Source of the DNA: Candidatus Micrarchaeota archaeon
Lineage (GTDB): Archaea; Micrarchaeota; Micrarchaeia; Norongarragalinales; Norongarragalinaceae
Length of the DNA stretch: 37,316 bases
Assembly (NCBI GenBank): GCA_018304285.1
Contig: JAGVWL010000002.1
Span: 1-37,316 of the forward strand
Direction: 5' to 3'
The notes below the pieces were generated by a model that did not search any database, was not told the origin of the DNA, and saw nothing but the letters and a program-made list of their open reading frames with translations. Of the stretch, positions 14,920 to 36,204 are shown in pieces. Numbering within the stretch: the stretch's first letter is position 1; every line of letters starts with the position of its first letter. Made by a program: the position numbers and the translations under genes.

Positions 14920-15942
14920 ATGGTTTTCAAGAACGAGCTTGCACTGAACGCGGGTTTCCTTCCCGACTCGCTGCCGGGAAGGGAGGGAGAGCTCAACGAG
15001 CTTGTTTTCTCGCTGAAGCCGGCTTTCGAAGGCCGGAAGGCGAAAAACCTGTTTTTATTCGGGCCTCCGGGCACGGGCAAAACTTCCTGCGTGAAAAAAG
15101 TTTTTTCCGGCTTCAACGAGGAATCGCAAACCGCGAAAGCGGTTTTCGTCAACTGCTGGCAAAACCCGACCCGCAATTCCGTGCTGGCGCGCATTGCAGA
15201 AGCGGTGGGAGAGCCTTTGCCGCGAAGGGGGCTGGGGACGGATGAGGTTGTTTTGCGCATTACGCAGGAGTTTCACTTGCAGAAGGCGTCGTGCGTTGTT
15301 GCTTTGGACGAGTGCGACAGGCTTTTGCACAACCGCGAGGATGCGGTGATTTACGATTTGCTGCGAGGCGACTTCGTTTCGGCGATAATATGCATTACGA
15401 ACGACCGGGATTTTCTGGGCAAGATGGACGAGCGCACGCGCAGTTCCTTCCAGCCTTCGGTGCTCGGGTTTTCCCGCTATTCGCCGGTCGCGTTGAAAAA
15501 AATCCTTTCGGAACGCGCTCGCGCCGCATTCCGGCCGGACGCGTGCTCCGATGAAACGATTGCGTTGGTCGCCGCATACGCTTCGAAGCTCGGCGGGGAC
15601 GCGCGCGTGGCAATAGAGGCATTATGGCAGTGCGGGAAAAACGCCGAGGCGCGCGGCTCGCAGAAGATAGAAAAGCGGGATTTCGAGATGCTGAAGGAAA
15701 ACCCTTCGGTGCAAAAGCGGCTGCAGGGGTTGAATGAAACGGAAGAGAAAATAATTTCCGCGCTGAAGCAAAGCGGGGGCGCGGCGACTTCGGGGGAAGT
15801 CTACCGGATCCTCGAGGGCGAAGGGATGACCGACCGGACGCTGCGCAACCACATGAAGCTTTTGGAGAGCAAGAAAATAATCTCGGTCGAGCGAGTGCAG
15901 CTGAAGGAAGGGTGGACTAGCCGGATAACGCTGTTGGTTTGA
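14920..15942 (+). CDS. cdc6: Orc1/Cdc6 replication initiator
   Basis: 340 aa. It has LPGREGELNEL, Walker [11 protein letters not shown], Walker B VVALDECD, and a C-terminal winged-helix-like region (ISALKQSGGAATSGEVYRIL...). Confidence 0.9.
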   Translation: MVFKNELALNAGFLPDSLPGREGELNELVFSLKPAFEGRKAKNLFLFGPPGTGKTSCVKKVFSGFNEESQTAKAVFVNCWQNPTRNSVLARIAEAVGEPLPRRGLGTDEVVLRITQEFHLQKASCVVALDECDRLLHNREDAVIYDLLRGDFVSAIICITNDRDFLGKMDERTRSSFQPSVLGFSRYSPVALKKILSERARAAFRPDACSDETIALVAAYASKLGGDARVAIEALWQCGKNAEARGSQKIEKRDFEMLKENPSVQKRLQGLNETEEKIISALKQSGGAATSGEVYRILEGEGMTDRTLRNHMKLLESKKIISVERVQLKEGWTSRITLLV

Positions 15943-18356: not shown

Positions 18357-18456
18357 TTTATAGCGAAAAGCGGAAATAATCGAGAACTTTTGCAGCTTTT
18401 CGCTAGTTCGCAGAATGCAGGGAAAAAGTTCCAATAGTTTTTGCCTTCTGCTATTA
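18357..18456 (+). repeat. copy A of a ~98-nt twin-hairpin intergenic element
   Basis: TTTATAGCGAAAAGCGGAAATAATCGAGAACTTTTGCAGCTTTTCGCTAGTTCGCAGAATGCAGGGAAAAAGTTCCAATAGTTTTTGCCTTCTGCTATTA. The first 50 nt are identical to copy B. It lies between the convergent rfcL and 18454-19179 genes. Confidence 0.9.
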
Positions 18457-19179
18457 CTTTCCGTTTTCTTCCGGCTTCTGCATGAATTTCACTGCTACGA
18501 CCAATGCGAATCCCAGCAGCAAAACCCAAAAGTAGTTTTTCTGCAAATCTCCCACGCTTTTGGCGAAAAACTGGTTGACTTCGTCGCTCAAGCTCTTTTC
18601 GCGGGTGAATTCCACATCCCACTTTCCGTGGAGGGGACCTGTCCACGTTATCACGTTCTTCTCCCTGAGCACGCCCGGGTCGGGAGAGATTTTTATTTCC
18701 TGCGCGTCGCGGGGCACTTCGAGCGTGAAGCTCATGCTGTTCCCGAGGCTGATCTCGCCTTTCGAAGATATCAGCGCTATCAGCGGCGTGTTGAGCGTAT
18801 ATTTCGTGGCTCGCGCGGAAAACAGCTGCATCTGCATTATTTCCTCCGCGTCGTACTCGAGCGTCACGCTCGCGGCGTTCGGGTGCACGTCGAACTCGTG
18901 CTTCGCCACGATGCGCAAGGTCGAGACCTTGCCGGAAAAGTGGTAGCCTATGCTTTTCGAAAACCTCTTCCAATCCAGCAGCGTAGTCTGCCCCAGCCGC
19001 AGGTAGTAATCGAAAGCCTCTTTCTCTAGGTCGTTTTCCAGGAAGAACACGGTTTTTTCGGTTATGCGCGCGTTTCCGTCTTCAGCTACCTTCGCGTAGA
19101 TGGAGAACGACTGGTCCAAGTATGCGAGGGCGTAAGGCGCAAGGAAAGCCAAAACCGCAACCGCTGCAAAAATCCTCAT
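18454..19179 (-). CDS. secreted protein with C-terminal membrane anchor, function unknown
   Basis: 241 aa from the ATG at 19179; the track start at 19197 is a TTG. The signal peptide is MRIFAAVAVLAFLAPYALA, and the C-terminal TM plus basic tail is YFWVLLLGFALVVAVKFMQKPEENGK. Confidence 0.6.
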   Translation of the reverse strand: MRIFAAVAVLAFLAPYALAYLDQSFSIYAKVAEDGNARITEKTVFFLENDLEKEAFDYYLRLGQTTLLDWKRFSKSIGYHFSGKVSTLRIVAKHEFDVHPNAASVTLEYDAEEIMQMQLFSARATKYTLNTPLIALISSKGEISLGNSMSFTLEVPRDAQEIKISPDPGVLREKNVITWTGPLHGKWDVEFTREKSLSDEVNQFFAKSVGDLQKNYFWVLLLGFALVVAVKFMQKPEENGK

Positions 19180-19196
19180 GAAAAGCTTTAACCGCA

Positions 19197-19835
19197 ATGG
19201 AATTAAAAGACCTTTTTTCTAATGGATTAAAGAACGCAAGGATGAAATCATTCGTTTCGTTTCCGGCCGCACTGCTTTTCGTGCTTACTATCACAGTCTT
19301 GGCGTTGACCTTATCTAAAGCGTCGGCATCTTCCCTCGACTCATCTGCAGAGCTGGTTTCCCTCGAGCGCAAGCACTATGCCGATGCGGAGCTGAAGAAA
19401 GTTTTCTCGCAAGTGTTTTCGATGAGCAAGGGCTCGGATGAACTGCAGTCCAGCAGGGCGATTGCGGAAAACCTCGCGCTGTTTGAGGTGAAAGCGAAAG
19501 AGCGCTTTGCGAGGGAAGGCGTAAGCGTGGAGTTGTGGTTCGGGGAATTCGATTCTTCCGAAGAGCGGGGAATTTTGGAAAAAACGCTTTCGCAAAAAAA
19601 GCCCGCGCGTTGCGCGCACTGTTACTCCCTTGCAGCGCACACTCTCGACTGGGACTGCAGGCCAGTGCGAAAGTCGATGGAATTAATTTTTGACAGGCAG
19701 ATTTCGAAATCGGGAATGGCGCACACGCTTTCCTCGGCCGAGTGGGTCGGGAAAAACATCGCTTTGGGCGCGACCTTTTATTCGCGGGGCGATGGGATGG
19801 CGTGGGTTTCGGTAATTCGGGAGGGGTTCGGGTGA
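19197..19835 (+). CDS. pilin-like protein with class III (type IV prepilin-like) N-terminus
   Basis: 212 aa. The likely true start is the second ATG at 19242, giving MKS/FVSFPAALLFVLTITVLALTL. It is the first gene of a four-gene chain joined by GTGA/ATGA overlaps. Confidence 0.55.
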   Translation: MELKDLFSNGLKNARMKSFVSFPAALLFVLTITVLALTLSKASASSLDSSAELVSLERKHYADAELKKVFSQVFSMSKGSDELQSSRAIAENLALFEVKAKERFAREGVSVELWFGEFDSSEERGILEKTLSQKKPARCAHCYSLAAHTLDWDCRPVRKSMELIFDRQISKSGMAHTLSSAEWVGKNIALGATFYSRGDGMAWVSVIREGFG

Positions 19836-21576: not shown

Positions 21577-21642
21577 TGAAAAGCAAACTGCGAAGGGCGT
21601 TAAATTCGTTCGGTTGATTTTTTGTAAACCGCGCGTTTATTT

Positions 21643-21740
21643 TTTATAGCGAAAAGCGGAAATAATCGAGAACTTTTGCAGCTTTTCGCTAGTCGCAGAA
21701 GGCAGGGAAAAAGTTCCAGTATTTTTGCCTTCTGCCATTA
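21643..21740 (+). repeat. copy B of the ~98-nt twin-hairpin intergenic element
   Basis: TTTATAGCGAAAAGCGGAAATAATCGAGAACTTTTGCAGCTTTTCGCTAGTCGCAGAAGGCAGGGAAAAAGTTCCAGTATTTTTGCCTTCTGCCATTA. Both 10-bp stems are perfect. The terminal TTA is the stop codon (TAA, minus strand) of the M50 protease gene. Confidence 0.9.
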
Positions 21741-22334
21741 GAATTCTACTGGAAACGGGTTGGTGAGCAATATTGCGACGAGGGCGATGAGCGTCGCGCC
21801 CCACACCACCTTGTTCCACGCGAACACCTTGCTTCCGTCGAGCGGGAAGATGGGAATGAGGTTGAACGCGCCGAGGAATGCGTTGATTGAAACGCCTATC
21901 GCGGCGAGCGTCTGCATTTCGGGGTAAGAAACGCCGATTGCAAGGAAAATCAGCGCGAGGAAGAGGTTTACGAGGGGGCCTGCCAAGGCGATTTTGCCGT
22001 TCTGCTCTTCGCTGACGCGCTTTCCGAAAATGTAGACTGCGCCGGGCGCTGCGAAAATGAATCCTCCGTCTGTAACGAACGCAAGAAACAGCGCTACGAA
22101 CAATCCCGTGGTCCAAGCGCGGTATTCGGCTTGCGCTCCATAGCGTATTGCGACGAACTTGTGCCCCAATTCGTGCAGCACGAAACCCGCGCCCAGCGTG
22201 AGGAATATGATTGTGAAGCGGGTGGCTGAAAAAGAGCCGACCGGAAAGAGCGTGAATGCCAGCGCTACGGTGATTACTGAAATGGCGATGTGGGCGGCCT
22301 CGATTTTGCCGATGGAAAAGTTCCTCGACGCCAT
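21738..22334 (-). CDS. site-2 protease family (M50) intramembrane zinc metalloprotease
   Basis: 198 aa and polytopic. It has the HExxH motif (VLHELGHKF) and the NxxPxxxLDG motif (NLIPIFPLDGSKV). Confidence 0.85.
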   Translation of the reverse strand: MASRNFSIGKIEAAHIAISVITVALAFTLFPVGSFSATRFTIIFLTLGAGFVLHELGHKFVAIRYGAQAEYRAWTTGLFVALFLAFVTDGGFIFAAPGAVYIFGKRVSEEQNGKIALAGPLVNLFLALIFLAIGVSYPEMQTLAAIGVSINAFLGAFNLIPIFPLDGSKVFAWNKVVWGATLIALVAILLTNPFPVEF

Positions 22335-22347
22335 TTTTTTTATAGCC

Positions 22348-24941
<2,594 letters not shown>

Positions 24942-35065: not shown

Positions 35066-35209
35066 GTGAAGCTTGCCAAGTGCGTTGTTTGCGGGGCGTT
35101 TAGCATGCGCGAAGAGCACTGTGGAAAGCGCACCGTTTCTGCGCATCCTGCGAAATTCTCGATTGCCGACAAGTACGCGGCGTACAGGCGCAAGGCCAAG
35201 TTCGGATGA
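35066..35209 (+). CDS. nop10: H/ACA RNP subunit Nop10
   Basis: 47 aa with a GTG start, hand-translated: VKLAKCVVCGAFSMREEHCGKRTVSAHPAKFSIADKYAAYRRKAKFG. The AHPxKFSxxDKYxxYR block is the Nop10 signature. It is in the expected position after aIF2-alpha. Confidence 0.8.
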   Translation: MKLAKCVVCGAFSMREEHCGKRTVSAHPAKFSIADKYAAYRRKAKFG

Positions 35210-35232: not shown

Positions 35233-35329
35233 TTTATAGCGAAAAGCGGAAATAATTGAACTTTTTACGGCTTTTCGCTAGTCGCAGAAGGCAGGGAAAA
35301 AGTTCCACTATTTTTGCCTTCTGCCATAG
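35233..35329 (+). repeat. copy C of the ~98-nt twin-hairpin intergenic element
   Basis: TTTATAGCGAAAAGCGGAAATAATTGAACTTTTTACGGCTTTTCGCTAGTCGCAGAAGGCAGGGAAAAAGTTCCACTATTTTTGCCTTCTGCCATAG. Both 10-bp stems are intact and the differences from copy B are concentrated in loop 1. It starts 24 nt after the nop10 stop. Confidence 0.9.
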
Positions 35330-35394
35330 CTTGCATGCCTGCGAGGGTTTTTATTGCCTCTTTCCGAAAGTGTATTGTAAAACGAGTTTTTTTT

Positions 35395-35418: not shown

Positions 35419-36204
35419 ATGGAACATCCTACTTTCACGGAGTCGTTCATCCGCGTCAAGAAAAAGCCGTCTTTGAAAAAGCCCCTGCTCATCGTTGGAT
35501 TGCCGGGCGTGGGCTTGGTTTCGAAACTGGCTGTAGACCACTTGGTCAAGGAATTCAAGGCAGAGAAAGTCGCCACGCTTTACTCGCCGCATTTTCCCAA
35601 CCAGGTTTTGGCGATGAAAAGCGGGCGCTTGCGCTCTTTCTCGATAGGCTTTTACGAAAAGAAATTCAAAAACCGCGACGTTCTGCTCGTTCGCGGGGAT
35701 TTGCAGCCTTTGACTGTCGAAGGGCAGTTTGAAGTCGCCGCGAAAATACTGGAGTACGCTAGGGTGGCCGGATGCGTGGATGCAATAGCCATGGCTGGCT
35801 ATGCGACTCCGGAAAAAAAGGCGAAGCCCGCGATTTACTGCGCTTGCACCGACAAGGGCTTGTTCAAGCGCATGAATTCGTTTGGGGCGACGAAGCCTGG
35901 AAAAATAGTGCCTATCGTAGGGATGGCGGGCGTGCTTCCGGCAATGGCAAAACTTTACGAGATGAACGGATGCTGCCTTCTTGTGGAAACGCCGGGAACG
36001 CCGATGGACGCGGCAGGCGCGAAGGCTTTGCTCGAGTTCATTTCTAAAATGACTGGCCAGAAAATGGCTTTCGCGACACTCGAAGCGCGGGTGAAGAAAG
36101 CGGAAAAACTTTTTGCTAGAATGCAGCCTCAGCAGACTCCCACGCTCCAGCCTCCGGCAATTCCCGAGGCGGTTTCGCGGGATGCCTTGCGTTACATTCG
36201 TTGA
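35419..36204 (+). CDS. PAC2-family (proteasome assembly chaperone-like, COG1938) protein
   Basis: 261 aa from MEHPTFTESF. PLLIVGLPGVGLVSKLAVDHLV is the characteristic N-terminal block of archaeal PAC2-like proteins. Confidence 0.7.
   Translation: MEHPTFTESFIRVKKKPSLKKPLLIVGLPGVGLVSKLAVDHLVKEFKAEKVATLYSPHFPNQVLAMKSGRLRSFSIGFYEKKFKNRDVLLVRGDLQPLTVEGQFEVAAKILEYARVAGCVDAIAMAGYATPEKKAKPAIYCACTDKGLFKRMNSFGATKPGKIVPIVGMAGVLPAMAKLYEMNGCCLLVETPGTPMDAAGAKALLEFISKMTGQKMAFATLEARVKKAEKLFARMQPQQTPTLQPPAIPEAVSRDALRYIR

Follow-up and report, generated by a model that had tools for sequence, protein, structure and literature searches.

What is the roughly 90-nt sequence that stands three times between genes in this stretch of an archaeal genome, always in one orientation, and how did it come to be there? 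The window, by which I mean the whole stretch of 37,316 nt that was analysed, belongs to an archaeal host (Micrarchaeota, order Norongarragalinales), and close homologues of its genes bear the annotation Candidatus Norongarragalinales or Micrarchaeota. It encodes ribosomal proteins L44e and S27e, aIF2-alpha, Nop10, the PAC2 proteasome chaperone and CDC48, together with an RFC-like ATPase, Orc1/Cdc6 and pilins with class III signal peptides; no tRNA or tmRNA genes were found in the window. A sequence-only reading had proposed three explanations for the repeat: a MITE- or REP-like mobile element, a modular bidirectional terminator, or a structured small RNA.

The analysis presented here favours the first of these, and the repeat is probably a ~90-nt non-autonomous transposable element of the MITE class that is specific to Norongarragalinales. 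It is dispersed, present or absent at orthologous sites, built of inverted repeats and devoid of coding capacity. The MITE-like family that it forms is of a common type, newly observed in Norongarragalinales and Micrarchaeota, and is not a new RNA gene. The novelty that had been claimed for it stands in so far as no Rfam family matches it, and is tempered in so far as MITEs are already known in archaea, DPANN included (PMC11602168, PMC10969869), a 2024 census having reported a high MITE density in some DPANN genomes (PMC11602168).

Copies in the window and element anatomy

Three copies (A, B and C), all on the plus strand, were recovered in the window by alignment and pattern matching, in agreement with the earlier reading, which had placed three same-strand copies at these positions; the copies align cleanly and similarity ends sharply at either edge of each. 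The stem-1 pattern, AGCGAAAAGC..GCTTTTCGCT, has exactly 3 matches (A, B and C) against 0 expected in shuffles. The stem-2 pattern, GCAGAAGGCA..TGCCTTCTGC, is exact in B and C and has one mismatch in A (GCAGAATGCA), which agrees with the 10-bp stems as they had been described, perfect in B and C and with a single stem-2 mismatch in A. Profile searches with nhmmer, using the whole element and the half-unit, returned no further whole or half copies in the window, and hence no fourth. A and B show no difference over their first 51 nt, where an identity of 50 nt had been reported. The copies, their parts and the adjoining stop codons are placed as follows:

Copy A, 18357-18456, plus strand: core TAGCG..GCTA at 18361-18453, with TTA at 18358-18360 and at 18454-18456
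Copy A hairpin 1, 18362-18404, plus strand: arms 18362-18371 and 18395-18404, with a 23-nt loop
Copy A hairpin 2, 18410-18451, plus strand: arms 18410-18419 and 18442-18451, with one mismatch (T at 18416)
TAA stop codon of a membrane-protein gene (ORF 18454-19197), 18454-18456, minus strand: adjoins the core of copy A; TTA recurs at 18358-18360
Copy B, 21643-21740, plus strand: core at 21647-21737, with TTA at 21644-21646 and at 21738-21740
Copy B hairpin 1, 21648-21690, plus strand: arms 21648-21657 and 21681-21690
Copy B hairpin 2, 21695-21735, plus strand: arms 21695-21704 and 21726-21735
TAA stop codon of the M50 (site-2) protease gene (21738-22334), 21738-21740, minus strand: adjoins the core of copy B
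Copy C, 35233-35329, plus strand: core at 35237-35326, with TTA before and TAG after it
Copy C hairpin 1, 35238-35279, plus strand: arms 35238-35247 and 35270-35279
Copy C hairpin 2, 35284-35324, plus strand: arms 35284-35293 and 35315-35324

Copy A lies between convergent genes. The 3' edge of both A and B is the TAA stop codon of a minus-strand gene (TTA on the plus strand), and copy B is found directly 3' of the M50 protease gene, which is encoded on the minus strand. Copy C starts 24 nt past the stop codon of nop10 (35066-35209), and the ATG of PAC2 at 35419 follows ~90 nt beyond the copy. The gene context as described from the sequence, including copies that abut gene 3' ends, was thereby confirmed.

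Several further sequences in the window were recorded alongside the copies. Upstream of PAC2, GGGTTTTTATTGCC (35345-35358) is identical in three lineages despite the diverged spacer around it, and is probably the BRE/TATA promoter of the PAC2 gene; the insertion of copy C lies just upstream of this box, which was left intact. Beside copy B, GGTTGATTTTTT(G/T)TAAACC (21612-21630) is kept in the relatives L157 and L158; it probably acts as a signal, for instance a promoter, for the small gene that follows the M50 protease gene on the minus strand. The Orc1/Cdc6 gene is encoded on the plus strand at 14920-15942 (Pfam Cdc6_lid and AAA_22), and because of this gene a replication origin may lie close by; the three copies all lie to the same side of this gene, in a common orientation. 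The element itself was also considered as an origin recognition box, given that GTTCCAGTA in loop 2 resembles archaeal ORB cores, and this reading was dropped, CCAGT not being conserved among the copies. A 152-nt direct repeat in the CDC48 gene (23317-23468 and 24136-24287, 70% identity) is not a mobile repeat and matches the two AAA domains of that gene.

A single ~48-nt unit, duplicated in inverted orientation, makes up the whole element, which thereby amounts to a pair of long terminal inverted repeats and no intervening sequence. In the half-unit profile search, half 2 aligned in reverse complement to half 1 over the full ~48 nt with ~65-70% identity, which bears out the earlier description of the halves as approximate reverse complements, and each ~48-nt unit holds a perfect 10-11-bp palindrome of its own. 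The outer ends read (T)ATAGC..GCTAT(A), with the terminal sequences TAGCGAAAAGC.. and ..GCCTTCTGCTA. Terminal inverted repeats of at least 10-15 bp were sought as a mark of a MITE, and such repeats are present: the ends ATAGCGAAAAGC and GCCTTCTGCTAT form 9 Watson-Crick pairs and 1 G-T pair over 12 positions. Across sites the core measures 85-93 nt and no ORF lies inside the element, in keeping with the size of ~50-800 bp and the lack of coding capacity taken as typical of prokaryotic MITEs.

Twin hairpins are the minimum-energy fold on both strands. Copy B folds as RNA at -36.1 kcal/mol (z = -4.85, and z = -5.6 for the minus strand) and as DNA at -24.2 kcal/mol (z = -5.9), while a single long hairpin, the other fold offered in the earlier reading, reaches only -23.3 kcal/mol when forced. 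Loop 1 GAACTTTT(T) is complementary to loop 2 (A)AAAAGTTC over 8-9 nt in A, B and C, because the same motif sits in both inverted halves. The complementary loops noted from the window are real in these three copies, but the complementarity is lost in 7 of the 18 family variants, and similarly the 5' TTTATA hexamer and the T5 runs are features of the window copies that are not conserved family-wide. The Rfam/Infernal check that had been suggested matched no family: Rfam at gathering thresholds gave zero matches over the whole window, and permissive searches around A and C gave only weak generic microRNA-precursor hairpin matches (E of at least 0.19).

Dispersed copies, empty sites and insertion junctions

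Public data (the window, the MAG DATDSY01 and groundwater metagenome contigs) contain 33 copies of the element at ~21 independent intergenic sites. All copies are the full double unit and the flanks are unrelated between sites, as is expected of the dispersed copies of a MITE; no solo half-units were seen in any locus examined (~600 kb). DATDSY01, a MAG of the Norongarragalinales, has three true copies that are 90-96% identical to the window copies and have unrelated flanks. A hairpin-1 pattern scan of the genome collection returned at least 113 loci, nearly all of them chance bacterial hairpins, and yields no census because the pattern is too unspecific; among the hairpin-1 matches listed, only the three DATDSY01 loci are true copies. 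A tighter junction pattern led to 24 groundwater metagenome contigs. Viral contigs gave zero copies in three scans, that with the junction pattern included, and four matches to a hairpin-2 pattern in viral contigs were rejected as chance hairpins. Five hairpin-1 pattern matches in the Bacteroidales MAG CAISRB01 (L033, L041, L045, L053 and L104) were likewise rejected as copies, being chance (AGCGAA)n/(TTCGCT)n hexamer palindromes that form a separate simple-repeat family.

Copies at four unrelated sites (L114, L115, L117b and L119) are 100% identical, and L010 and L118 are a second identical pair at unrelated sites; such identity speaks for an amplification in the recent past. Two contigs, L121 and L150, terminate inside the element, and such breaks are expected because it is a repeat. 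With respect to gene setting, at least 15 of the 21 sites adjoin a gene 3' end, five lie between convergent genes, and four lie between divergent starts.

Two loci showed unusual arrangements. At L117 (2332-2920), two inverted copies surround a 102-aa ORF, which was considered as a Y1 transposase and rejected, having no Pfam match and no such likeness; in the left copy, L117a, loop 1 is the reverse complement of the family consensus and the stems are unchanged. L137, when compared with L129 (8200-9010), shows 99% identity on one side of the element and ~76% on the other, and is either a chimeric assembly across the repeat or the product of recombination at it.

Syntenic relatives were retrieved via homologues of aIF2-alpha and the M50 protease, searches that returned the MAG DASYRB01 and not DATDSY01. 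The relatives (L138/L157, L139/L140/L158/L159, L143 and L154/L170) have a protein identity of 82-85% in aIF2-alpha, or 52-53% in the case of the more distant lineage, and of 79-83% in the M50 protease. The element is absent throughout their 33-41 kb syntenic stretches, and all three window sites were found empty, A and B in L157 and L158, and C in L138, L139, L143 and L154. At site A, the convergent genes of L157 and L158 are 7-11 nt apart, and the junction reads CCT-TTA-CTTTCCG in L157 versus GCT-TTA-[TAGCG..GCTA]-TTA-CTTTCCG in the window. Site B shows an analogous junction around the stop codon of the M50 protease gene, and at site C the spacer from the nop10 stop codon to GGGTTTTTATTGCC measures 10-20 nt in the relatives versus ~135 nt, element included, in the window. 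These empty sites, which are a hallmark of MITEs, separate species only: no presence/absence polymorphism was seen within the species of the window, of which every sampled strain has all three copies. The search of related assemblies that the sequence-only reading had recommended thus turned up both extra copies and empty orthologous sites, and its MITE/REP-like candidate is supported by these empty sites, by identical copies at unrelated loci, by the terminal inverted repeats and by the contig breaks.

The strains of the window species do differ in a ~280-nt indel downstream of the PRPP synthetase gene (L145 12880-13284 versus L144 12880-13004). This indel lies just past the right end of the window, which has the short form, and is unrelated to the element. 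The 216-aa 'gene' called in L146/L148 in place of PRPP synthetase has no relation to the L028 gene and is an artefact, an ORF on the antisense strand.

The junctions were then compared across sites, with a duplication of 2-10 bp counted as the target-site duplication of a MITE. The 3-mer of the 5' flank equals that of the 3' flank at 7 of the 21 sites (permutation p = 0.005), the repeated 3-mers being TAA (four sites), TTA (two sites, A and B) and TGA (one site, L123). The 3' flank is something other than TA-N at five sites, and each of these repeats its own 5' flank, whereas 10 of the 21 sites read YTA..TAN, which is either a 2-bp TA duplication or merely a longer terminal palindrome. The left flank is loosely T-[T/A/G]-A, with position -3 variable. 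Open frames of at least 226 codons end in the flanking 3-mer, which serves as their stop codon, at seven independent sites. As judged from these sequences, the flank pattern fits, without being proof of, a cut-and-paste or copy-in element that makes a 2-4-bp duplication at TA/TNA targets and whose insertions are filtered by selection.

A plausible course of events for a MITE would be as follows. A putative transposase encoded elsewhere would recognise both ends and move or copy the element. The targets would be T-N-A or TA sequences in the short spacers between genes, very frequently the TAA or TGA stop codon itself, and the short duplication would regenerate the stop codon, leaving the gene intact; given the very compact genomes, the survivors would be such insertions only. 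After insertion, the element is probably transcribed together with the adjoining genes, the predicted fold being two hairpins, and if termination or mRNA stability were affected at all, this would be a secondary by-product. With regard to an autonomous partner, no transposase gene and no solo end were found in ~600 kb of locus sequence, and Pfam searches of 20 flanking or window proteins gave no transposase.

Terminator and RNA readings

The frequent position behind genes may instead reflect a host-selected cis element, that is, a modular bidirectional terminator or a 3'-UTR stabiliser whose repeats are retained for their function. The setting agrees with this, at least 15 of the 21 sites adjoining a gene 3' end and five lying between convergent genes, and in the window copies a polymerase arriving from either side meets a stem arm and then GAACTTTT(T). 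Moreover, the three copies are fixed in every sampled strain, and the stems and an orthologous copy are strongly conserved. However, relatives with the same genes in the same order do without the element and have 7-11 nt between the convergent genes, and four of the sites lie between divergent gene starts. An intrinsic terminator was defined as a G+C-rich stem and a short loop with a T run directly after, and no match to such a hairpin-plus-T-run was found within any copy; the T runs are found in the loops and lack conservation, runs of at least five T being missing in subfamily II copies such as L010 (T3-T4). In addition, identical copies at unrelated sites require a copying mechanism anyway. 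I therefore hold selection for such a host function to be a very unlikely origin of the family, and the bidirectional terminator that had been put forward from the window lacks support as the primary nature of the element on three counts, the missing hairpin-then-T-run arrangement, the unconserved T5 runs and the divergent setting of 4 of the 21 sites.

The SPRITE and terminator-like repeats of Streptococcus pneumoniae (PMC10969869) offer a comparison, as they too are dispersed, lie after genes and could fold terminator-like. The element differs from SPRITE in having no hairpin followed by a T run, and archaeal termination uses oligo-T, which is not conserved in the element family.

The copies were also considered as small structured RNA genes, with two hairpins, a kissing-loop contact and transcription from the TATA-like hexamer at the 5' edge. 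Folding is stable on both strands (z of -4.8 to -5.6), loop complementarity of 8-10 nt occurs in 11 of the 18 variants (a value reached by no more than 11 of 1000 shuffles), and correlated loop changes are found in two variants, GAACTTTC/GAAAGTTC in L010 and C>T with G>A in L129a. Correlated changes of this kind are expected of inverted repeats that have to be recognised by a single protein and need no RNA pairing, and the loop complementarity itself is a direct consequence of the inverted-repeat halves. It is gone in 7 of the 18 variants, and loop 1 of L117a is inverted. The hexamer is not conserved, GTAATAGCG, GGAATAGCG, ATGATAGCG and GAAATAGCG occurring as well, and a transcription start driven by it would fall inside loop 1. 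The 20 stem pairs are 98.6% paired and show no compensatory change among the 18 variants, so that the covariation proposed as a check never appears in the stems. Furthermore, there is no Rfam match and close relatives lack copies. An RNA gene is thus barely credible, and with no conserved promoter, no stem covariation and a loop pairing that is lost in 7 of 18 variants, the kissing-loop small RNA of the earlier reading likewise lacks support as the element's primary nature.

Conservation and relation to known elements

The MITE reading leaves one set of observations that a decaying MITE does not predict. Stem arms deviate from the consensus in 1.0% of alignment cells versus 15.8% for loops, a ~16-fold difference. 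The convergent spacer between TFB and Trm1 is occupied in several lineages (L011 5370-5463, L129 8317-8410 and L137 1504-1596), and between the orthologous copies of L011 and L129 the element differs at 1 of 87 nt versus 29 of 264 nt in the flanks (Fisher p = 0.003, ~10-fold). The constraint on the stems and on the orthologous copy exceeds the expectation for a decaying neutral insertion, and possible causes are that only intact-stem copies get copied, gene conversion among copies, or host selection. DDE transposases have no need of perfect internal palindromes, which are better suited to the hairpin-recognising HUH enzymes. This conservation is the sole feature of the element that merits specialist attention.

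The main rival to a DDE-type MITE is a REPIN-like mechanism, in which REP-like 48-nt units, tagged by ATAG and arranged as an inverted doublet, would be copied as single-stranded DNA by an HUH/Y1 enzyme (RAYT-like, or an IS200/IS605 TnpA) and retained in the lineage over the long term; I consider it unlikely. The element shares with REPINs (PMC3116915, PMC3733652) the inverted hairpin doublet of ~100 nt, made here of ~48-nt hairpin units with no solo units, and the intergenic position, often just after genes, as well as strongly conserved stems and an orthologous copy that persists across diverged lineages. The 10-bp stems are perfect and sequence-invariant with loops free to vary, and the flipped loop of L117a between unchanged stems fits hairpin recognition by an HUH/Y1 enzyme. 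The 4-nt outer tag, ATAG..CTAT, resembles the GTAG..CTAC tag of REP doublets (PMC3733652), and the ~10-fold better conservation of the orthologous copy than of its flanks fits the vertical persistence of REPINs (bioRxiv 10.1101/2021.07.10.451892). IS200/IS605 is the commonest IS family in Micrarchaeota and is present in >65% of their genomes (PMC13343696). Lastly, the three window copies lie on one common strand, and likewise both L129 copies.

On the other hand, the repeated flank 3-mers (p = 0.005) and the TTA..TTA of A and B point to a staggered-cut (DDE) insertion, whereas HUH enzymes leave no duplication; REPINs have no short direct repeats at their flanks, while in the element such repeats are more frequent than chance, though not universal. 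The tag is ATAG, invariant at alignment columns 4-7, and neither the GTAG nor the CGTC by which REPINs are recognised, and the geometry of 10-bp stems with 22-23-nt loops departs from that of REPs, whose loops are much shorter. The end hairpins are inverted in the element, while the two end hairpins of IS200/IS605 elements (as in IS608) stand in direct orientation. No Y1 transposase gene, RAYT genes included, was found beside any copy examined, and RAYT-type Y1 subclasses were absent from Archaea in a 2018 survey (PMC6006769). The fuller proposal that the element is an archaeal counterpart of REPIN-RAYT systems, copied as single-stranded DNA by a single-copy HUH transposase, inherited vertically and possibly co-opted by the host, is distinctly unlikely. 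If true, it would account for the invariant stems, the flipped loop and the ~10-fold better-conserved orthologous copy; no REPIN-RAYT-type system is known to have been described in Archaea.

The PATEs of Haloquadratum walsbyi (PMC3119063) resemble the element in being archaeal, gene-less and miniature, with a hairpin at either end, and their parent family, IS200/IS605, is common in Micrarchaeota (PMC13343696). An element derived from IS200/IS605 in this manner was expected to carry subterminal hairpins that point the same way at both ends, to insert 3' of a fixed 4-5-nt target and to lack inverted repeats, in line with the IS200/IS605 ends, which are not inverted repeats, have the fixed target 5' of the insertion and produce no duplication. 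In contrast, the halves of the element are inverted and its left flank is only T-[T/A/G]-A, or loosely T-W-A.

A MITE accordingly remains the preferred identification, and the element was compared with the prokaryotic MITEs, namely the Correia elements of Neisseria, SM1-SM4 of Sulfolobus, and archaeal and DPANN MITEs (PMC11602168). Like these, it is ~90-97 nt long, non-coding, multicopy and intergenic, has terminal inverted repeats and short A/T-rich flank repeats, occurs as near-identical copies at unrelated loci with presence or absence at orthologous sites, and would form stable hairpins if transcribed. Unlike them, the whole element is an inverted repeat with no internal region, each half contains its own palindrome, perfect over 10 bp around a 22-nt loop, the duplication is equivocal (2-4 bp, at TA or TNA), and no parent insertion sequence was found in ~600 kb. 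No sequence similarity to catalogued MITE families was found, in a comparison that did not include the supplementary catalogue of PMC11602168.

The element reveals no new RNA class and no new regulatory mechanism. Its main interest lies in the stop-codon-hugging insertion pattern, the double-palindrome build and the unexplained conservation. In practical terms, it is a repeat that breaks metagenome assemblies and may make chimeric contigs (L121, L150 and possibly L137), and it can serve as a marker to trace Norongarragalinales lineages in groundwater. For the Micrarchaeota, a DPANN group with tiny, packed genomes in which mobile DNA is little known, it adds a well-delimited MITE-like family, and it suggests a route by which such an element may survive in a genome with spacers of 7-11 nt, by landing on stop codons and regenerating them.
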